Assembly (NCBI GenBank): GCA_009693245.1
Contig: SHXO01000005.1
Location: 1 to 62,084 of the forward strand
DNA from: Betaproteobacteria bacterium
GTDB lineage: Bacteria > Pseudomonadota > Gammaproteobacteria > Burkholderiales > SHXO01
Reading direction: 5' to 3'
Length of the DNA: 62,084 nucleotides
Of the stretch, positions 7,664-58,482 are shown in pieces (the stretch's first letter is position 1; each line of letters starts with the position of its first letter). The position numbers and the translations under genes were made by a program. The notes beneath the pieces were generated by a model, which saw only the letters and a list, made by a program, of their open reading frames with translations, had not been told where the DNA came from and made no database searches.

Positions 7664-8371
7664 TCATTTCCGCCAGCTTGCCAACAGGCCACCCAGCATG
7701 GCGGTCAGCAGCGCACGCGCATGATCGGGCTCGGCATGGTACATCTCAGCCGGAAGAAGAGCCGGTGTATGCGAGCTTGCTTGCTCCGAAAGTAGCCCGG
7801 CCACGCGCTCGATGCCTTTCTCGCCGAGCAATGTCCTCACATCGTGACCCAGCGTACGCGCACCTGCAAGCCCATAATCGAAAGCTTCTTCCCGCGTCCA
7901 GCCCACAAACTCGTCGAATAGGCGCGCCTCATTTCCAGCGCCCAAGTAGTTTCCGAGGATCAGTATAAGGTCGTGCGCATCCTTGCGCGGTGATTGGTAG
8001 TGACGGTCCTTCCAGCAAACGATCTTGAGCAACGCAAGCGCCGGCAAGGAGACCACATGCGTCCGGATATCGCCCGGGAGCCGGGTTTCGAGTGCCGTAG
8101 CCAGCGCCTCCCGAAAACCAAAGACATTCATTACCTGCTCTCCGCTCGGGGGCCAAGCAATGGTTCTTTCGGGTGTCTCTACGTTGCCGAACGGTACGAG
8201 ATCAACAGGCAAGTCGATCTGGTGTCGTAGCCGGTGCGCGGCCGCCGAGAGATCGGTGAACTTGCCTGAAGCAATCAAGCGCTGTCGCAGCGTCTCGAAC
8301 GCCGCCCAGTCTGGTACCGCGAACGCGAAATCCAGATCTTCGGTCTCGCGCCGGGTAGCGATGCCGTGTGC
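7664..8371 (-). pseudogene. nucleotidyltransferase-fold protein lacking its N-terminus (deletion-fusion remnant)
   Basis: Sensible sequence starts only at HGIATRRETEDLDFAFAV (a G...DxD minimal NTase motif). It continues as VDLVPFG...LKIVCWKDRHYQSPRKDAHDLILIL. Upstream residues of the 330-aa ORF are an out-of-frame reading of the peptidase gene. Confidence 0.45.
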
Positions 8372-22854: not shown

Positions 22855-23235
22855 CGGTTAATATTGCAACGTGCTATGGGCACACTGGTGCGTCCGGGGA
22901 AGCAAGAGGTGCCTGGTATTGGAGCATCGATTGGGGGCTAGATCATGAAACGATTCGAGTTAATCCAAACGCCAGACCGCCGCAAAGCCTGTACGGACAG
23001 CCGGAAAATTTCCGACCGCCGCGCAAGGAGCGAGCACCGCCGTTACATTGCGCGAATTGCTGGACGAAGCCCACGCCCGAATCCGCGCGCTGCAACGGAC
23101 CGTGGAGGCCCTAGGCGAGCCGGTCTGATAATAAATAGGGCTTTGCGGCCGTAAAGAGGCAACGCGATAACAAATCTTCAACCGCGAGAGGCACGACGCC
23201 TTGGCCGCGATGATTTCAACCAGCCCACGCTCAAG

Positions 23236-49423: not shown

Positions 49424-49548
49424 AGCGGCGCAGACTAATCATCAGGTTGGCGAAAGTCGTTAGCTTGGCTCGCCACCTACCAGGCATAACCCGTAACGGG
49501 GCCGCGAGACTATACTTCAGTATCGAGTACTCAGGTTCTGAGCGAGTT

Positions 49549-49800
49549 ATGAAAGAGGACGAACTGCTTCAGCGGATTACAGTTAACCCAGAGATTTTTG
49601 GCGGCAAACCCATCATTCGCGGGAGACGGCTGGCCGTGGAACACGTGCTTAGCATGCTTTCCTTAGGCGACTCTCCTGATACGATTCTTGAAGGATATCC
49701 CTGGCTTGAGCGCGACGATATTCTTGCGTGCTTGATCTACGCCCGCAGGATCGTCGCACAAGAAAGGGTGGAACCACTGTTCGTTAGCGCGCCTGCGTGA
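49549..49800 (+). CDS. DUF433 domain protein (antitoxin-like)
   Basis: ITVNPEIFGGKPIIRGRRLAVEHVLSMLSLGDSPDTILEGYPWLERDDILACLIYA. Confidence 0.8.
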   Translation: MKEDELLQRITVNPEIFGGKPIIRGRRLAVEHVLSMLSLGDSPDTILEGYPWLERDDILACLIYARRIVAQERVEPLFVSAPA

Positions 49801-50069
49801 AGGTCTTGCTGGACGCCTGTGTTTGGGGCAAGGCAGCGCCAGCCCTAGAACAGGAGTGGCACGACGTTACTTGGGCCGTGGAATGGCCCTTCGATCCGGG
49901 TGACGAGGCCATTCTGTCAATTGCGTCCAAGGAAAACCGCGTGCTAGTTACTCTTGATAAGGACTTCGGAGAGCTAGCAATTCGGCGTGGCCAGAGTCAT
50001 TGTGGGATCGTTCGGCTGGTTGGTATACCGGCCAAGACGCAAGCAGAAGCATGCGCTCAGGTGTGCTGA
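49797..50069 (+). CDS. DUF5615 / PIN-like small nuclease-fold protein (toxin-like partner of DUF433)
   Basis: GTG start in a GTGA overlap with the DUF433 stop. MKVLLDACVW...LVTLDKDFGELA. Confidence 0.7.
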   Translation: MKVLLDACVWGKAAPALEQEWHDVTWAVEWPFDPGDEAILSIASKENRVLVTLDKDFGELAIRRGQSHCGIVRLVGIPAKTQAEACAQVC

Positions 50070-50483: not shown

Positions 50484-52256
50484 TTAGGGTTGCTTCGTCC
50501 AAGAATCGCGCAGCGTCACCGCGCGGTTAAAGACGGGCGCGCCAGGGTTGGACTCTATCCGGTCCGCAACGAAATAGCCGTGACGTTCGAATTGGAACCT
50601 GTCTTCCGGTTTCGCGTCCTTCAAGGAGGGTTCCAAGTAGCCGCTGATAATTTTCACGGAACCCGGATTGAGATCTTCCAGGAAATCCTGCTCGCTACCA
50701 GGGTGGGCGGTCTTGAACAAGCGGTCATAAAGTCGCACGCTGGCACGGTAGGCGTGCTTGCCGCAAACCCAATGGATGTTGCCCTTGACTTTGTAGGTGT
50801 CCGAACCAGGGGTGCCGGATTTGGAATCGGCGTAGTAATCGCAATGAACCGCGATGATATTTCCGCTCGCATCTTTATCCGCGCCCTTGCACTTCACCAC
50901 GAAGCCATAACGCAGACGCACCTCATTGCTGGGGAAAAGCCGGAAGTAACCCTTTGAAGGTATTTCCATGAAGTCCTCGCGCTCGATCCACAGTTCCTTG
51001 GAGAAGGGCATGGCGCGCTTACCCCAATCGGCCTTCTGTGGATGATTGGGTGCTTGCGTTTCCTCCGCTCCACTTTCGGGATAGTTGTCGATGATGAGTT
51101 TGAGCGGGTCGAGCACCGCCACGCGGCGCGGCGCACGTTCGTTCAAATCCTCCCGCATGCAGTCTTCCAGCAAGCTGTAGTCGATCCACGAATCGGATTT
51201 CGATACTCCGATACGCTCGGCGAACATGCGAAATCCTTCTGGGGTATATCCGCGCCTGCGAGCGCCGACGAGCGTGGGCATGCGTGGATCGTCCCATCCA
51301 TCCACGCGCTTTTCCTCCACCAATTGGATGAGCTTGCGCTTGGAGAGCACCACATAAGTCAAGTTGAGCCGCGAGAACTCATACTGGTTGGGCAGGGGTC
51401 GTTGCAATACCCCAAACCCAGCCAGTTTTTCCAACACCCAATCGTAGAGCGGCCGGTGATCCTCGAATTCCAGGGTGCAGACGGAGTGGGTGATGTTCTC
51501 CAGCGCATCGGATATGCAATGGGTGTAATCGTACATGGGGTAGATCGCCCATTTGTCACCCGTGCGGTGGTGATGCGCGTGGCGGATGCGGTAGATGGCG
51601 GGGTCACGCAGATTTATGTTGGGCGAGGCCATGTCGATTTTGAGCCGCAGCACGTGGGTGCCATCGGCGTGCTGGCCTGCCTTCATCTCGCGAAAGAGGC
51701 ACAGGTTTTCCTCCACGCTCCGGTCACGATAAGGGCTGTGCGTGCCTGGTTCCGTCAAGGTGCCGCGATGCGCGCGCATTTCCTCGGCGCTCAGCGAATC
51801 CACATAGGCGAGGCCGTGCATGATGAACAGCTCGGCGAAGTCGTAGAGTTCCTGGAAGTAGTCCGAAGCATAAAAGAGATGGGGTCCCCAATCGAAACCC
51901 AGCCATTTCACCGAATCGAGTATGGACTCCGCGTATTCCGAATCCTCGGTGACAGGATTGGTGTCGTCGAAGCGCATGTGACACCAGCCGCCGTAATCGC
52001 GCGCGAGGCCAAAGTTCAGGCAGATGGATTTCGCGTGCCCGATGTGCAGATAACCGTTGGGCTCCGGCGGAAAACGCGTGCGGATCTTCGCGGGATCCGC
52101 GGGTGCCCCCGCGTGAACGGTGGCGGGGCCGGGTTTTCCGCCCCAGGTGCGCGTGGCGTACTTACCCTTGGCGAGATCCTCGCCGATGATGTTGCGGATA
52201 AAGTTGGTGACGTGCGTTGGCGTTTCGGCTCCAACTTTTTTCGGCGGGGAGGACAT
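50484..52256 (-). CDS. glnS: glutamine--tRNA ligase
   Basis: 590 aa. RFPPEPNGYLHIGHAKS (HIGH) and VLSKRKL (KMSKS-like). Confidence 0.95.
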   Translation of the reverse strand: MSSPPKKVGAETPTHVTNFIRNIIGEDLAKGKYATRTWGGKPGPATVHAGAPADPAKIRTRFPPEPNGYLHIGHAKSICLNFGLARDYGGWCHMRFDDTNPVTEDSEYAESILDSVKWLGFDWGPHLFYASDYFQELYDFAELFIMHGLAYVDSLSAEEMRAHRGTLTEPGTHSPYRDRSVEENLCLFREMKAGQHADGTHVLRLKIDMASPNINLRDPAIYRIRHAHHHRTGDKWAIYPMYDYTHCISDALENITHSVCTLEFEDHRPLYDWVLEKLAGFGVLQRPLPNQYEFSRLNLTYVVLSKRKLIQLVEEKRVDGWDDPRMPTLVGARRRGYTPEGFRMFAERIGVSKSDSWIDYSLLEDCMREDLNERAPRRVAVLDPLKLIIDNYPESGAEETQAPNHPQKADWGKRAMPFSKELWIEREDFMEIPSKGYFRLFPSNEVRLRYGFVVKCKGADKDASGNIIAVHCDYYADSKSGTPGSDTYKVKGNIHWVCGKHAYRASVRLYDRLFKTAHPGSEQDFLEDLNPGSVKIISGYLEPSLKDAKPEDRFQFERHGYFVADRIESNPGAPVFNRAVTLRDSWTKQP

Positions 52257-52332
52257 TCAGGGCGATTCTTGGACCGGTGAAAGGCGCGGATTTTACAGCA
52301 GCGTTCCCCGTAGGCGCGCACCCGCCTTGCGG

Positions 52333-52835
52333 TTAGGCCGCCTTTTCCGCCAGCAATTGAGCGATAGCAGCGCCCACCGCCAGATCGGGAGCTTGCCCGA
52401 AGGCGTGGTAGCGCAAGAAACCGCCGCGGTCGATCAGAAGTAGAGTAGGGGTGCCGCGTAATTCGTAGGCGGCCATGGTGCGTGGGATGGGATCGCCATC
52501 GCCGGGCTCATCCACGCCGACCGGGAAGTTCACGCGGTACTCTTGCAGGAAGGCCTCCAGGGACACCGGTTGCATGGCTTCGTGATGTTCGAAAACGGTG
52601 TGCAATCCCACCACCGCAAGGTCTTCCGAGCCAAAGGTTTCGTGAGAATACGCTGTGTTTGGGGAATGCCATGGGATACGCAGCCGGGGCATAACATTTG
52701 GAATGCGTGCAAGACCACTACTTTTCCCCGCAAGCTCTCCAGGCTCAAAGCTGCGTCGGTGTTGAACCATCGCGTGGTGTGCCACGCGGGCGCATGCATG
52801 CGCGCGGGCGCGAGAAAGGAATTGCTGGTGTGCAT
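52333..52835 (-). pseudogene. thioredoxin-fold (redoxin/TlpA-like) protein with a frameshift
   Basis: The N-terminal part, with LRGKVVVLHAFQMLCPGCVSHGIP, is in one frame. The continuation FGSEDLAVVGLHTVFEHHEAM...ELRGTPTLLLIDRGG is in another. The shift is near 52640-52665. Confidence 0.6.
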
Positions 52836-52868
52836 CGTGAGTTGTTGGATGAAACCGCGTTTCTTTCC

Positions 52869-53639
52869 CTAACAGATTATGTCCGTGAATATAGAGGTTG
52901 CCACAAAATCTGTCATGAACTTCTGAACGCCGAAATTTGGCTCAACGACAAGCGCCCGGGCCAGCGCCTTGCCTAACGGGCGCCCGGTGGCAAGTGCGTG
53001 CAACATGGCGTGCTCGCCCGTAGTCAATGGTCTTAATTCGATCGCATGGTCACGGCGGCTCACCAGCACAAGTTGCGTCCCTTCATCGAGAGACACGGTA
53101 TCGTCTCCCGCATAGTCTGGCTGGCTCACGTGCCATATACGGGCGATGGGGTAAATGGACTCCACCAAGCGCGCGGCAGGACTCAAAGTAAAGCGCAGCG
53201 CAGGTAGCCGGTCCGCGCTGAATTCGGCGAGCCGCGACAAGTCCAGAGGTTTGGCATCGGCGGCATGGAAGACACGATGCACGGCCCACTCCAGCCGTGC
53301 AACATCGGCAAGATAGGGCAAGCCTCGCGCGGGAGGAAACGCGGCGAGGAAAGCGCCGAATTCCTCGCCATAATCATGCAAGTCTCCGGAGTCCGAGAAA
53401 GACTGTTTAGCGAAAAGCCTGGCGGCCGCGTTGAAAAATTCGTCTCCCACCAAACGCAAAATGACCGGATAGGTATCGCGCAGCGCGTTGCGATAGTTGC
53501 CCAACACGTTGTTGCGGTAAATCCCCAGGCGTGCCGAAGGGTCCAGACTCCCAGCTTCGATCACGTTCTCGATGGGCGCATCCACGCCGGAGAATAGCGC
53601 CTGCGTGAATTGCTCTTGGAGATCACGCAGCCAGAGCAT
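52869..53639 (-). CDS. bufC: DUF2063 domain protein (BufC-like partner of the MNIO enzyme)
   Basis: 256 aa. GIYRNNVLGNYRNALRDTYPV signature. It overlaps the DUF692 gene by 17 nt. Confidence 0.8.
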   Translation of the reverse strand: MLWLRDLQEQFTQALFSGVDAPIENVIEAGSLDPSARLGIYRNNVLGNYRNALRDTYPVILRLVGDEFFNAAARLFAKQSFSDSGDLHDYGEEFGAFLAAFPPARGLPYLADVARLEWAVHRVFHAADAKPLDLSRLAEFSADRLPALRFTLSPAARLVESIYPIARIWHVSQPDYAGDDTVSLDEGTQLVLVSRRDHAIELRPLTTGEHAMLHALATGRPLGKALARALVVEPNFGVQKFMTDFVATSIFTDIIC

Positions 53640-54465
53640 GCTCTTCCTCCAGGATGGCCTGCGCGCGCGCGGCTTGTTCCAGCAGCGTCGAGAGCGGCGG
53701 GAGGTCGGTGTCCCACTCGATCAACGTCGGTTTGGGCCCCATGCTCCGGATCGCGGCGCGGTACAAGTCCCATACGGCATCGCTTACCGGCGTGCCATGA
53801 GTGTCGATGAGACAAGACCCGCTCGCATCGAAACCGGATAAATGAATCTCCTGCACCGCATCGCCCGGCATGGCAGCGATGTAATCACGGGCGTCGAAAC
53901 CGTGATTGACAGCATTGACGTAGACGTTGTTCACGTCGAATAGCAAGCCGCAGCCGCTTCGGCGTGCCAGTTCGGCAACGAACTCCCACTCCGGAATGGT
54001 GGAGTGCGTGTAGCGAAGATAGCTCGACACGTTCTCCATGAGAATCCGGCGGCCGGCGGTCTCCTGCGCCTGCATCACACGCTGGCTAAGATGGGCCAGC
54101 GCCTCCTCGGTATAGGGCAGTGGCAGCAGGTCGTTGAGGTGCCTGCCGCCTGCCGCGCTCCAGCAGATATGATCGGATACGACGAAAGGATCGTAGCGCT
54201 CGATTAATCCTTTGAGCTTCTGTAGATGCGCCGAATCAAGCGGGCTGGCGGAACCTAGTCCCAAGCCCACACCGTGCAAACTGAGGGGATAGTGCTCCCG
54301 GCAGCGGCCGAGATAAAAGTGTGGCTGCCCGCCGTCGCCGAAATAATTCTCGCTATGGACTTCCAGCCAGCCCGTGGCGGGCAGCGTATCGAGCACTTCG
54401 CGGTAGTGCGGGGCGCGCAGCCCCACTCCGCACAATCGTTCCACGGGAAGACTTGGCCGAAACAT
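53623..54465 (-). CDS. bufB: DUF692 / MNIO-family (MbnB-like) iron-dependent oxidase
   Basis: 280 aa. GVGLRAPHY...WLEVHSENYF...LSLHGVGLGLGS...SDHICW...IEWD TIM-barrel pattern of UPF0276/DUF692. Confidence 0.85.
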   Translation of the reverse strand: MFRPSLPVERLCGVGLRAPHYREVLDTLPATGWLEVHSENYFGDGGQPHFYLGRCREHYPLSLHGVGLGLGSASPLDSAHLQKLKGLIERYDPFVVSDHICWSAAGGRHLNDLLPLPYTEEALAHLSQRVMQAQETAGRRILMENVSSYLRYTHSTIPEWEFVAELARRSGCGLLFDVNNVYVNAVNHGFDARDYIAAMPGDAVQEIHLSGFDASGSCLIDTHGTPVSDAVWDLYRAAIRSMGPKPTLIEWDTDLPPLSTLLEQAARAQAILEEEHALAA

Positions 54466-54501
54466 GCAGCCTCCCCGTAGTCCTTCTTGCTTCGCTAGAA
54501 C

Positions 54502-54765
54502 TTATTTCTTGACGACGACTTGGCCGCCAACGATCTTGTCGCAAGCGCCCTTGGGCACGTAGACCCACTCTTCGGCGTTGCCGTCCGTCTTGGCTTGTCC
54601 AGCGCAAGAGTGTTTGCTGGTGCTGCAATCGTTCATGCCTGCCTTGGCGATGCCGGCGCACTTCTCGTTGTCGCCCTTGGCAGCGAGCGCGCTGGTGCCG
54701 CCTGCGGTGAGGCCCAAAGCGACCAGGCCGGCGATGGCGGAACGGATCATCAATTCGTTTTTCAT
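54502..54765 (-). CDS. bufA: DUF2282 secreted Cys-containing peptide (bufferin BufA1-like RiPP precursor)
   Basis: ATG at 54765 after AAGGAGAA. Signal peptide [28 protein letters not shown], then [48 protein letters not shown] with 4 Cys. Confidence 0.85.
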
Positions 54766-54943
54766 GCTGTTCTCCTTGTGAGTTAGGGGGTGTCGAGGGA
54801 CCGGCAAGCCTAGTCACGCTCGTAAATGATACGCGACGGCCTAGCTACCGGATGCACCCGTAATTTCATATACACGGATGCGGTTCTCGGCATTTTGTCG
54901 CAAAGACTCCATGCAACCTTACACGGGAGGATTCAACCTCCCG

Positions 54944-55420
54944 TTAAGGCCCAACCTTGACAGAACCGATGGCCCAACCCGGCGAAACGCACATGGATCC
55001 CACCACGGGGCGCGTGCTCGCTCCGCTGAAATTGGCTTTCTCGAAGGCGCTCATCAGGCCGCTTTCCACTTGGTAGGAATAGATACCGGAGGCCAGTTGC
55101 GCATTGGACTTGCCCGCCTTGATGTGGTCTCCTGAACAATCTTCGGACTTGAACAACGATGCGGAAGCGCTTGCTTCCGCGCTTGGAGCCGGGGCTGCCG
55201 CGGCAGGGGCCGGCGCTTCGCAGGCCCCTTTACTGGGGAGCGTGGGGCGCCTGCACTTCAAACTGCACTTCGTTCCGGCACTACCGATGCTCGATTCATC
55301 CAGCAAGTGCTTCTTGCCGTCCTTGCATTCGCAGCAGAAGGGGTCGGCACTCGCTAGGTTGAACGCGAGCGCCAAGAGGCCGGTGGCCAGGGCAATTCCT
55401 GCCCGAGAAATAACATGCAT
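54944..55420 (-). CDS. secreted Cys-rich protein, unknown function
   Basis: 158 aa. Signal peptide ending NLASA. The mature part has 8 Cys (FCCECKDG..., KCSLKCRR, GACEAP), an Ala/Pro linker and a C-terminal globular part. Confidence 0.5.
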   Translation of the reverse strand: MHVISRAGIALATGLLALAFNLASADPFCCECKDGKKHLLDESSIGSAGTKCSLKCRRPTLPSKGACEAPAPAAAAPAPSAEASASASLFKSEDCSGDHIKAGKSNAQLASGIYSYQVESGLMSAFEKANFSGASTRPVVGSMCVSPGWAIGSVKVGP

Positions 55421-55505
55421 CAGTGTCTCCGTTCGTTTAGGCCAAAGTTCGCCGTCAGGGTATTATGCCTACCCCAAGAGTCCTGGCTGGCCGAAGAGCG
55501 CTTTC

Positions 55506-55709
55506 TTAGTTGCTTTGCACAAGTTTCCAAGCGGCCAACAGCCCGAACGCGACATTCATCAGCGCGATCATGCCGATTAGCACGAGGCCAAACGAATTCA
55601 GCGGCAGCGTGCGCATGGCCCAAGTGCATACGGAAGACAGCACGTTAAACCCCATCATCATCCAGAATAGTGGCTTACGGGGTTGCCAGAGTCTGAGTAG
55701 CTTTTTCAT
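55506..55709 (-). CDS. 67-aa two-TM membrane protein
   Basis: ORF with two hydrophobic segments. No known motif. Confidence 0.35.
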   Translation of the reverse strand: MKKLLRLWQPRKPLFWMMMGFNVLSSVCTWAMRTLPLNSFGLVLIGMIALMNVAFGLLAAWKLVQSN

Positions 55710-55748
55710 GACTCAAAACGTAGTGTAAATGCCCTAGGCGGCAGCGGG

Positions 55749-57338
55749 CTACCGCCCATCCTCAAGAATCAAATCGGCCGCCTTCTCCGCCAGCGCGATA
55801 ACGGTGGCGTTGATGTTGCCGGAGGGCACGGCCGGCATGACGGAGGCGTCCACGACTCGTAGGCATTCCACACCGTTCACGCGCAGGCGCGGGTCCACCA
55901 CGGCGCGTGCATCGGTTCCCATGCGGCAGGTGGAAGTGGGGTGGAACACGGTGTCGCCGGCCTCGCGGCAGAAGGCGAGCCAGTCTTCGTCGCTTTGCAC
56001 GCGCGGCCCGGGGAATTCCTCGGCGGCGGCATAGTCGCGCATGGGTGCCGTGGCCGCGATACGGCGGACGACCTTCAAGCCATCGACCATTACACGGCGG
56101 TCGTTCTCCGTGGCGAGGTGGTTGTAGCGGATGGATGGCATGGTGCGCGGATCGGCAGAGGCGATATGTACCGAGCCGCGCGATTCCACCTGGGTTTGCG
56201 ATACCGAGAGGGTGAATCCAGAGAAGGTATGCAGATGGCCGCCGCGTTTGGCGGTGGAGAAATTGATGTAATAGATTTGTGCGTCAGGGCGCGCAATTTC
56301 TGGCCTTGTGCGGATGAACGCCGCGGCGTAACCGGCGCTCACGGTGAGCGGGCCGCGGCGCTGTAGCAGGTACTGAAGGCCGATTTTGGCTTGGCCCCAA
56401 AAGGTGCGCATGTCGTCGTTCAGCGTGATGGGCCGGGTGCAGCGCCAGAACGTGCGGCAGTAGAAGTGGTCTTGCAGATCTTCCCCCACGCCGGGCGCAT
56501 CGTGCACTGGCGAGATACCATGACGGTCGAGCAACGCGCGCGGTCCTACCCCGGAGAGTTGCAGCAGTTGCGGTGAGTTGAAGCTGCCACCTGAAAGGAT
56601 GATTTCGCGCGCGGCGCGCACCTCGTGACGGGCCCCGCGCGCTTCGTAGATCACGCCGGTGGCGCGTTTGCCCTCGAACATGACGCGAGTGGCGAGCGCC
56701 TCGGTTTCCACGCGCAGGTTGGATCGCTTTTCCGCGGGGCGAAGATAAGCGACCGCGCTGCTACAGCGCCTTCCGTTGCTCGCGTTGGCGTGGTAGTAGC
56801 CGGTGCCCTCTTGGGTCGCGCCGTTGAAATCGTCGTTGTGGGGAACGCCGAGTGCCATGGCGGAAGCGATGAAGGCATCGCATATTTCATGTTTATCCGG
56901 AATTTCCGACACGGCCAGAGGCCCGCCCGCGCCATGCCACTCGCTGGCGCCGAGGCTATGGTTCTCGGACTTCTTGAAGTAAGGTAGCAAATCGTAGAAG
57001 GTCCATCCGGGTATGCCCCAACCGTCGTAGTCCTCGCGCTGGCCGCGAACATGCACCAAGCCGTTGATGGAAGAGGAGCCGCCCAGCACTTTGCCGCGCG
57101 GAGTGAATACGCGCCGGCCATTGAGAGTGGGCTCAGGTTCGGATTGATAGGCCCAGTTGACATCGGTGCGCGCGAACAGTTTGCCGTAGCCCAGCGGCAC
57201 GTGAATCCAGAAATTGGTATCGCGCGGGCCGGCTTCCAGTAGCAACACGCTGTCGCGGCCATTGGCGCTCAGGCGGTTCGCCAGGACACAGCCCGCCGAA
57301 CCCGCGCCGACGATTACGTAGTCGTAGGTATTACTCAA
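55749..57338 (-). CDS. GMC-family FAD oxidoreductase (choline-dehydrogenase-like)
   Basis: TTG start at 57338 gives LSNTYDYVIVGAGSAGCVLANRLS. The C-terminal part has the HPTSTCRMG GMC signature. The ORF-track start at 57656 is an extension. Confidence 0.9.
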   Translation of the reverse strand: MSNTYDYVIVGAGSAGCVLANRLSANGRDSVLLLEAGPRDTNFWIHVPLGYGKLFARTDVNWAYQSEPEPTLNGRRVFTPRGKVLGGSSSINGLVHVRGQREDYDGWGIPGWTFYDLLPYFKKSENHSLGASEWHGAGGPLAVSEIPDKHEICDAFIASAMALGVPHNDDFNGATQEGTGYYHANASNGRRCSSAVAYLRPAEKRSNLRVETEALATRVMFEGKRATGVIYEARGARHEVRAAREIILSGGSFNSPQLLQLSGVGPRALLDRHGISPVHDAPGVGEDLQDHFYCRTFWRCTRPITLNDDMRTFWGQAKIGLQYLLQRRGPLTVSAGYAAAFIRTRPEIARPDAQIYYINFSTAKRGGHLHTFSGFTLSVSQTQVESRGSVHIASADPRTMPSIRYNHLATENDRRVMVDGLKVVRRIAATAPMRDYAAAEEFPGPRVQSDEDWLAFCREAGDTVFHPTSTCRMGTDARAVVDPRLRVNGVECLRVVDASVMPAVPSGNINATVIALAEKAADLILEDGR

Positions 57339-57445: not shown

Positions 57446-58324
57446 TTACACTTTGCGCGCGGGATCTGCACTGCCCGCGATGGTTTGAACCGCGCTGAAC
57501 CTTACCGGTGCCGGGGATTTCGCGGGATTCAGAGGAGATACCAAGTTCGGCATGGTGCGAATGGCGCCTACCAAGGGATACTTGGTGGTGTCCTGGCTCG
57601 CTTCCCAGCTTGGATCGGCGATCTCGGTGAAGACTTGTTTGAGCCGTTTGCCCCACGTGGAGCGAATCATCTGGAAGTAATTATTGGATTCGTCCATGGT
57701 TGCGAAGCGGGTCACCTTGAGCATTCCCGTTTCATAGCAAAGCAAGTCCAAAGGCAGGCCGACGGAAAGATTGCTGCGCAGCGTGGAATCCATCGAGATC
57801 AACGCGCACTTGGCGGCTTCATCCAGGGGAGTGGAGGGCGTGATGACGCGGTCTAGGATAGGTTTGCCGTACTTGGATTCCCCAATCTGAAAGTAAGGGT
57901 TCTCCGCGGTGGCCTCGATAAAATTGCCGGCGGCGTAGACGTGGAACACGCGGCATGCCTCCGCGCCAATCTGGCCGCCGAAGAGGAAGTTGCAGTTGAA
58001 TTCGATGCCGAAGTCCTTCAACGCTTGGGCATCGCGCGTTTGCACCTGGCGCACGGCATCGCCCACGAGGCGCACGGCCTCGAACATGCTCGGAGCTGTC
58101 CACAGGGAGAGGCCCTCGCCGCTTTCGCGTTCCAGCAACTGTTGTTTGACGGCTTGGGTGATCGCCAGATTTCCCGCGCTCATCAGAACGAGCAATCTCT
58201 CGCCGGGGTTCTGCACCACCGTCATTTTGCGGAAGGTACTGATCTGGTCCACGCCTGCATTCGTGCGGGAGTCCGACAGAAAGACAATGCCAGCGTCGAG
58301 TTTGATTGCTACGCAATAGGTCAT
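57446..58324 (-). CDS. proteasome-type protease, Anbu (ancestral beta subunit) family
   Basis: MTYCVAIKLDAGIVFLSDSRTNAG with Thr right after the initiator Met. It has a beta-subunit-like fold pattern and a C-terminal extension of about 45 aa. Confidence 0.7.
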   Translation of the reverse strand: MTYCVAIKLDAGIVFLSDSRTNAGVDQISTFRKMTVVQNPGERLLVLMSAGNLAITQAVKQQLLERESGEGLSLWTAPSMFEAVRLVGDAVRQVQTRDAQALKDFGIEFNCNFLFGGQIGAEACRVFHVYAAGNFIEATAENPYFQIGESKYGKPILDRVITPSTPLDEAAKCALISMDSTLRSNLSVGLPLDLLCYETGMLKVTRFATMDESNNYFQMIRSTWGKRLKQVFTEIADPSWEASQDTTKYPLVGAIRTMPNLVSPLNPAKSPAPVRFSAVQTIAGSADPARKV

Positions 58325-58482
58325 GACCAGTAAGGTGAGATCGAGCCAAGCCATTCCACCGGCCAGGAACTACTGGTTGGCGTGGGAAAGCGCGGATTCG
58401 AGACGCCGGATCTGGGCTTCCATCTCCGGGCTCGCACCAAGTGCCGCAGTTGGAAGCAGGAAGAGAAAAACGAGCATCCTAA

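Follow-up and report, generated by a model that had tools for sequence, protein, structure and literature searches.

We examined a 62,084-nucleotide stretch of DNA (contig SHXO01000005.1 of assembly GCA_009693245.1, from an uncultured Burkholderiales bacterium; hereafter 'the window') for a candidate operon encoding a bufferin, a peptide that is made by the ribosome and modified after translation (RiPP). An earlier note, made from the sequence alone, had placed such an operon on the minus strand as three tightly packed genes, with an overlap of 17 nucleotides between the second and the third, and the open reading frame (ORF) calls bear this out: bufA, bufB and bufC are three intact minus-strand genes at the positions that note had proposed (Table 1). 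The bufA ORF was listed as a 101-residue frame with a TTG start; an internal ATG at position 54765, with an AAGGAG ribosome-binding site 6 nucleotides upstream, gives an 87-residue product. The bufA stop codon is separated from the start of bufB by 36 nucleotides, and the bufC ATG (53639) precedes the bufB stop (53623), forming the overlap. Ribosome-binding sites could be read from the sequence for all three genes, together with an arrangement suited to translational coupling. No further (paralogous) buf genes were found in the window.

Relatives of the locus were collected by scanning one genome per species with BufB. Of the relatives that this returned, which number more than 551, the best match (locus L001, 85% identity) belongs to a Burkholderiales metagenome-assembled genome, and the others come almost entirely from uncultured Beta- and Gammaproteobacteria. 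Among the 80 best loci, BufC adjoins BufB in every case and BufA does so in 74. The bufABC layout recognized in the earlier note is shared by 74–80 of these 80 related loci.

BufA matched the Pfam DUF2282 family (PF10048) with an E-value of 8.4e-24 and a score of 83.8 bits (cut-off 22.4) across profile positions 1–52 of 53; Pfam labels give this family the name BufA1. The four cysteines of the protein (Cys36, Cys47, Cys54 and Cys75) lie in the contexts EKCAG, NDCS, HSCAGQ and GACDK, respectively, and align with invariant cysteine columns in 72 relatives without gaps or anomalies. The broader pattern EKCxG...NDC...CAG...W..VPKGxC is likewise invariant across those relatives, and a longer form, EKC-G---K-G-NDC...CAG...W--V-KG-C, is conserved. 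At its N-terminus the protein carries a Sec-type leader, comprising a basic n-region (K2, R8) and a hydrophobic core (residues 9–21, with Kyte-Doolittle values up to 2.18), and both the basic-hydrophobic-AxA organization and the A-L-A/A cleavage site are conserved in BufA relatives. The computed mass of the predicted 59-residue core is 6050.92 Da (monoisotopic 6050.917) when unmodified and 6040.84 Da in its mature form.

BufB matched the Pfam family MbnB_TglH_ChrH (PF05114) over the whole profile, with an E-value of 2.6e-107 and a score of 358 bits. It also exceeded the cut-off of the NCBIfam equivalog model MNIO_BufB, named for the multinuclear non-heme iron oxidases (MNIOs; 382.5 bits, cut-off 310), and fell below the cut-offs of the HvfB, ApyH, MbnB and ChrH models, which places it specifically in the bufferin subfamily. 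Its score against the HvfB model (237 bits, cut-off 360) indicates that it is not an HvfB orthologue. The enzyme possesses every histidine, aspartate, glutamate and asparagine that is invariant in 82 relatives, and it retains H64, H99, E144, D177, N180, H208, D221, H223, E250 and D252, each of which is at least 97% conserved across the 82 sequences. These conserved residues sit in motifs that align with its relatives in the PDB (3BWW, TglH and MbnB), of which TglH and MbnB are distant in sequence (73 and 36 bits, respectively). As putative metal ligands and catalytic residues, they would be assigned to individual iron sites by analogy with MbnB structures.

BufC matched the Pfam DUF2063 family (PF09836) with an E-value of 2.7e-22 and a score of 79.3 bits (cut-off 27.2). 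An AlphaFold2 model of the protein, built from 93 homologues, had a predicted local distance difference test score (pLDDT) of 92.6 and a predicted template modelling score (pTM) of 0.87. The modelled protein consists of an N-terminal helical domain followed by a C-terminal winged helix (a beta-hairpin and three helices) resembling a RiPP recognition element (RRE). A Foldseek search with this model returned TglI (8HCI_A, E-value 1.7e-6; about 1e-6 for 8HCI and 8HI7) and NGO1945/NgoC (3DEE, E-value 1.7e-4) as its top matches, with weaker matches to MbnC and to the RRE of TbiB1; the only significant matches in the PDB were to partner proteins of MNIO enzymes.

The earlier note had described the three products as an 87-residue, Sec-exported precursor with four cysteines in the DUF2282 arrangement, a 280-residue DUF692/MbnB-like enzyme and an overlapping DUF2063 partner, and had proposed profile searches of all three, a mismatch counting against the assignment. 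All three proteins matched their respective models (DUF2282, MbnB_TglH_ChrH and DUF2063) and the enzyme matched MNIO_BufB as well, with scores far beyond chance; each of the cysteine contexts is present, and the leader is of the Sec type by the heuristic criteria of hydropathy and the AXA rule. Those features of precursor, enzyme and partner protein that define a Buf1 cluster and could be tested were all found in the locus. We consider it highly likely that these genes form a working bufABC operon whose product is a bufferin of the Buf1 (DUF2282) type.

Table 1. Positions of the buf genes and of other features of the window, numbered from its first nucleotide.
Feature	Position	Strand	Description
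bufA	54502-54765	-	87 aa, Buf1/DUF2282 precursor
BufA predicted Sec signal peptide	54682-54765	-	residues 1-28, cleavage between ALA and AK
BufA core	54505-54681	-	59 aa, holds Cys36, 47, 54 and 75
bufB	53623-54465	-	280 aa, MNIO enzyme (DUF692 in the older naming)
bufC	52869-53639	-	256 aa, DUF2063/PME1 partner protein
ECF-sigma-type promoter-like motif	54897-54923	-	TGTAAGG-N16-CGAC, exact match, 157 nt 5' of the bufA ATG
GC-rich hairpin	54924-54943	-	CGGGAGG-TTGAAT-CCTCCCG, read from the sequence; also in the minimum-free-energy fold
AhpC/TSA-family thioredoxin-fold gene	52333-52835	-	CPGC motif, no signal peptide, two ORFs in different frames
Leader between motif and bufA	54766-54896	-	about 130 nt
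158-aa protein gene	54944-55420	-	secreted, Cys-rich
67-aa ORF	55506-55709	-	hydrophobic
302-aa ORF	57446-58354	-	
DUF433/DUF5615 pair	49447-50069	+	
Second motif occurrence	22990-23016		one mismatch

Inspection of the region upstream of bufA revealed a motif of the type recognized by extracytoplasmic function (ECF) sigma factors (Table 1). Among 74 loci, 30 have the same elements 5' of bufA, at the same spacing and with a varying spacer sequence; the background is 0.013 per 250 nucleotides, and the enrichment in front of bufA genes is about 30-fold. The motif is similar to the sigmaF site that experiments have defined in Caulobacter (GTAACC-N16-CGAA) and from which the buf/DUF692 operons of that organism are driven (PMC3511200; PMC11626156). 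The N16 spacing is equal in the two, and the −35 and −10 elements differ as GTAAGG/CGAC in the window versus GTAACC/CGAA in Caulobacter. This likeness suggests that the motif acts as a promoter. It directly follows a hairpin that begins immediately after the stop codon of an upstream gene (encoding a 158-residue protein, described below) and that probably marks the gene off from the unit in which the buf genes are transcribed; since the hairpin has no T-run, we infer rather than assign a terminator role for it. Scans for sigma-70 promoters and terminators gave nothing above shuffled expectation. A second occurrence of the motif, far from the buf genes, is within chance expectation; the gene that follows it appears, from reading its translation, to encode a protein like 3-methyladenine DNA glycosylase. 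The leader between the motif and bufA folds somewhat more stably than shuffled sequences (z −3.3), but the three orthologous sequences available lend its hairpins no clear covariation support. A riboswitch or other known RNA in the leader, or elsewhere in positions 52200–55800, was considered and rejected, there being no Rfam matches at an E-value of 1 or below.

Characterized relatives suggest how the operon would work. Transcription would start from the ECF-sigma (sigmaF-like) promoter about 150 nucleotides 5' of bufA, under the control of an ECF sigma factor that, with its anti-sigma partner, would be encoded elsewhere in the genome. By homology, BufC would bind BufA in the cytoplasm through its RRE-like C-terminal domain and present it to BufB, which would use O2 to convert the central Cys47 and Cys54 to 5-thiooxazoles with a loss of 4 Da each, as in Buf1 of Caulobacter vibrioides. 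In Buf1 systems, BufB1 and BufC1 are necessary and sufficient for modification of BufA1 (PMC11626156), and the two central cysteines become 5-thiooxazoles and the outer pair a disulfide, for an overall change of −10 Da (PMC11626156; PMC12452194). All characterized MNIO-PME1 pairs install 5-thiooxazoles; their products have been grouped as 'captophorins', and the structure of oxazolin has been revised accordingly (PMC13097082). The modified precursor would then be exported by the Sec machinery, its 28-residue signal peptide being cut after Ala-Leu-Ala and a Cys36–Cys75 disulfide being formed; the signal peptide of Buf1 is cleaved at its predicted site and is not needed for modification (PMC11626156; PMC12452194). 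The resulting 59-residue periplasmic product would sequester excess Cu(I) and Cu(II) through its thiooxazole sulfurs and so buffer copper stress, possibly along with stress from other thiophilic metals or oxidants. The Buf1 product binds both copper ions and protects against copper (PMC11626156; PMC12452194). The chemistry described in the earlier note, in which the oxidase and its DUF2063 partner convert precursor cysteines to 5-thiooxazoles (−4 Da per cysteine) and yield a periplasmic copper chelator, agrees with this literature (PMC11626156; PMC13097082). It needs narrowing in one respect: by analogy with Buf1, only Cys47 and Cys54 would be expected to undergo the conversion, Cys36 and Cys75 being expected in the disulfide.

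Several points weigh against the assignment or soften it. Against NCBIfam, BufA gave only a sub-threshold match to BufA2, a weak score that is as expected for a Buf1-type precursor. The HvfC model of the same collection aligns over most of its length, to residues 34–233 of BufC, with a score below its cut-off. BufA carries Met44 where most of the 72 relatives have a lysine, its sole deviation from them, and its signal peptide was called heuristically, from hydropathy and the AXA rule. A tblastn search with the DoxX protein of L001 detected no DoxX homologue anywhere in the window. Buf1 matures and functions without DoxX (PMC11626156), and doxX is also missing from buf2 and fon clusters; its absence is thus no bar to Buf1 membership, and the doxX-less layout is unexceptional. 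No sigmaF/NrsF-type genes are present in the window (nor, by tblastn, any ECF sigma or anti-sigma genes related to those that follow doxX in the related loci L002 and L009), so that the regulation proposed for the operon is read from the motif. Finally, the pathway steps set out above are carried over from homologues to this locus, and copper as the target metal cannot be read from sequence.

In one alternative, the operon would make the same kind of thiooxazole peptide within a stress regulon of the sigmaF/NrsF type, and the peptide would serve in defence against another thiophilic metal (gold, cadmium or mercury) or against stress from oxidants or hypochlorite. When first described, operons homologous to this one were named for their induction by gold (gig), the sigmaF regulon of Caulobacter responds to chromium, cadmium and other stresses (PMC3511200), hypochlorite defence in Azospira is under sigmaF/NrsF control (PMC4436054), and fusions of MerC with bufferins suggest roles with other metals (PMC12452194). 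The presence of a redox-type AhpC/TSA gene 3' of bufC could be read in the same way, but buf loci do not share that gene as a conserved neighbour, and the copy in the window is disrupted. All bufferins and captophorins tested so far bind copper and protect against it (PMC11626156; PMC13097082), and nothing in the BufA sequence of the window sets it apart from copper-binding relatives. We regard a physiological role other than copper buffering as unlikely.

The surroundings of the operon were described in the earlier note as non-standard. This holds in so far as doxX and the sigma/anti-sigma genes are absent and a redoxin gene is present; the departure is a minor one, given that doxX is dispensable and that the redoxin is frameshifted, its family at large showing no link to buf genes. 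In most relatives, the closest (L001, L005 and L013) among them, a DoxX-type gene stands directly 3' of bufC. This gene is immediately adjacent to glnS in L005 and L013 and is separated from it by about 2.9 kb in L001. Synteny between the window and L001 ends inside the 3' end of bufC and returns just upstream of glnS, and the intervening segment of about 3.3 kb, which L001 has and the window lacks, contains doxX together with a second bufferin cluster, of bufferin-2 type and in divergent orientation. Between doxX and glnS, positions 8166–10827 of L001 encode an MNIO, a DUF2063 protein and a six-cysteine precursor on the minus strand, and another six-cysteine precursor on the plus strand.

At the position occupied by doxX in these relatives, and beginning 33 nucleotides 3' of bufC, the window carries the AhpC/TSA-family redoxin gene (Table 1). 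When its frame is repaired, the product matches PF00578 over its full length. Alignment of the DNA showed that a 2-nucleotide TC insertion at about 52644–52647 (ATTCAC to ATTCTCAC) splits the gene. An intact 166-residue allele (P0001), carried by an ENA contig of another metagenome assembly in which the gene order is the same (the end of bufC, the redoxin gene, glnS, DUF433 and pstBAC), matches the whole of the frame-repaired protein at 99% identity; a second homologue, P0002, with 83% identity, is also intact. The existence of so similar an intact allele indicates that the insertion is either a recent or strain-specific mutation or an assembly error.

The replacement of the segment containing doxX and the second bufferin cluster, the frameshift in the adjoining redoxin gene and the lack of a cognate sigma factor nearby in the window might together be taken as signs of local erosion: once doxX and the buf2 cluster beside it had been lost, bufABC would have become unexpressed or unneeded. 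We find this extremely unlikely. The three buf genes are full length, and their invariant residues, ribosome-binding sites, overlap coupling and promoter motif are intact. One related locus, L081, keeps the doxX-less arrangement with an intact redoxin gene, DoxX is in any case dispensable for Buf1, and either an assembly error or a mutation confined to one strain could explain the frameshift, a near-identical intact allele being available in P0001.

We also considered whether the redoxin itself belongs to the system. The L081 locus, whose redoxin is 83% identical, has the full arrangement of the gene for the 158-residue protein, bufA, bufB, bufC, the redoxin gene and glnS, and besides the window only L081 and the contig of P0001 have the bufC-redoxin arrangement. 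The cytoplasmic CPGC redoxin could conceivably act, within this small lineage of Burkholderiales, as a functional accessory of bufferin maturation, either by maintaining the cysteines of the precursor in reduced form so that the MNIO can act on them or by taking over a redox role of DoxX; if that were so, it would offer a handle on the function of the fourth bufferin gene. We judge this very unlikely. The redoxin family returned 7,788 matches, and members with 72–76% identity occur in unrelated contexts, one of them in the L001 genome itself; with such homologues lying away from buf genes, the adjacency is lineage-specific rather than a conserved functional link, and membership of the redoxin in the buf system is doubtful. 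A general role as a conserved bufferin accessory was rejected, since none of the 80 BufB-related loci carries the redoxin.

Upstream of the operon, the gene for the secreted, cysteine-rich protein of 158 residues is conserved in L001 and L081. Its product has eight cysteines; a CCxC-rich segment at the N-terminus is joined by an Ala/Pro linker to a C-terminal domain. Neither Pfam nor NCBIfam gave a match for it, and a set of 5.8 billion proteins contained just 12 homologues. The idea that it might be a second substrate or partner was unsupported: the hairpin and the promoter-like motif intervene between it and bufA, and homologues below 65% identity lie away from buf genes. Among its distant homologues, one directly follows cbtB-cbtA and another lies beside terC, which hints at a metal-related role. 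A hydrophobic ORF of 67 residues, with no family match, is situated between this gene and a GMC oxidoreductase gene, and was present in none of the 80 BufB-related loci, L001 included. Elsewhere in the window, a DUF433/DUF5615 pair between pstB and glnS overlaps by 4 nucleotides in a toxin-antitoxin-like layout, its DUF5615 ORF spanning just 82 of 110 profile positions. A 302-residue ORF gave a sub-threshold match to a proteasome subunit (20.2 bits, cut-off 22.4) and may encode a bacterial proteasome-like protein.

The closest known counterpart of this operon is buf1ABCD of C. vibrioides (CCNA_03363–03366), which produces bufferin 1 (Leprevost et al. 2024, PMC11626156). The two share a precursor type (DUF2282, with a Sec signal and four cysteines), the MNIO BufB, the DUF2063 protein BufC, the gene order and a sigmaF-like promoter architecture, and the product expected from the window would be alike (two 5-thiooxazoles and a disulfide, with chelation of periplasmic copper). 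The operon in the window differs in having neither bufD (doxX) nor an adjacent sigF-nrsF pair, in its betaproteobacterial lineage and in the unrelated AhpC/TSA gene downstream. The gig operon of the betaproteobacterium Cupriavidus metallidurans, with the layout DUF2282-DUF692-DUF2063(-DoxX), also belongs to the Buf1 family (PMC11626156), and its precursor (WP_011519119) has been used as a Buf1 model (PMC12452194). As compared through the descriptions in those papers (PMC11626156; PMC12452194), gig has a DoxX gene and an associated ECF sigma factor, whereas the window has neither.

More distant systems share parts of the same machinery. HvfABC (oxazolin), FonABC (fontiphorin) and NgoABC (gonophorin), the EGKCG-repeat captophorins, employ the same pairing of an MNIO with a DUF2063/PME1 protein, the same 5-thiooxazole chemistry and copper binding (PMC11252979, PMC13097082), and the fold of BufC matches that of NgoC (3DEE). 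The Hvf, Fon and Ngo precursors are built of repeats, contain numerous Lys-Cys motifs and bind copper in a disordered way, whereas BufA forms a small folded domain (DUF2282) in which two sites would be modified. The methanobactin system MbnABC and the TglHI pair of the 3-thiaglutamate pathway have in common with BufB and BufC the MNIO TIM-barrel, its set of metal ligands and a heterodimer with a precursor-binding partner, TglI being the best structural match to BufC. Their chemistry is different (formation of an oxazolone-thioamide, or excision of a beta-carbon), their precursors carry a leader peptide but no Sec signal, and they serve to acquire copper, not to buffer it.

The earlier note regarded the class as new, with few characterized members, and considered the operon the most promising system in the window. 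The view of the class as rare is not supported, and the interest of the operon was overstated. In published surveys, catalogued Buf1 precursors number in the thousands and MNIO-PME1 loci more than 24,000, and bufferins are the largest group of MNIO-modified RiPPs (PMC11626156, PMC12452194, PMC13097082); standard models for BufA1 and BufB are now carried by Pfam and NCBIfam. The operon is a routine Buf1-type bufferin locus, of little significance past its correct annotation. Within that compass, it provides a natural Buf1 cluster without doxX, consistent with the reported dispensability of DoxX, and the GTAAGG-N16-CGAC motif, which recurs in the bufA promoters of many beta- and gammaproteobacteria, could be of use in defining the ECF regulon that controls bufferins outside Caulobacter.

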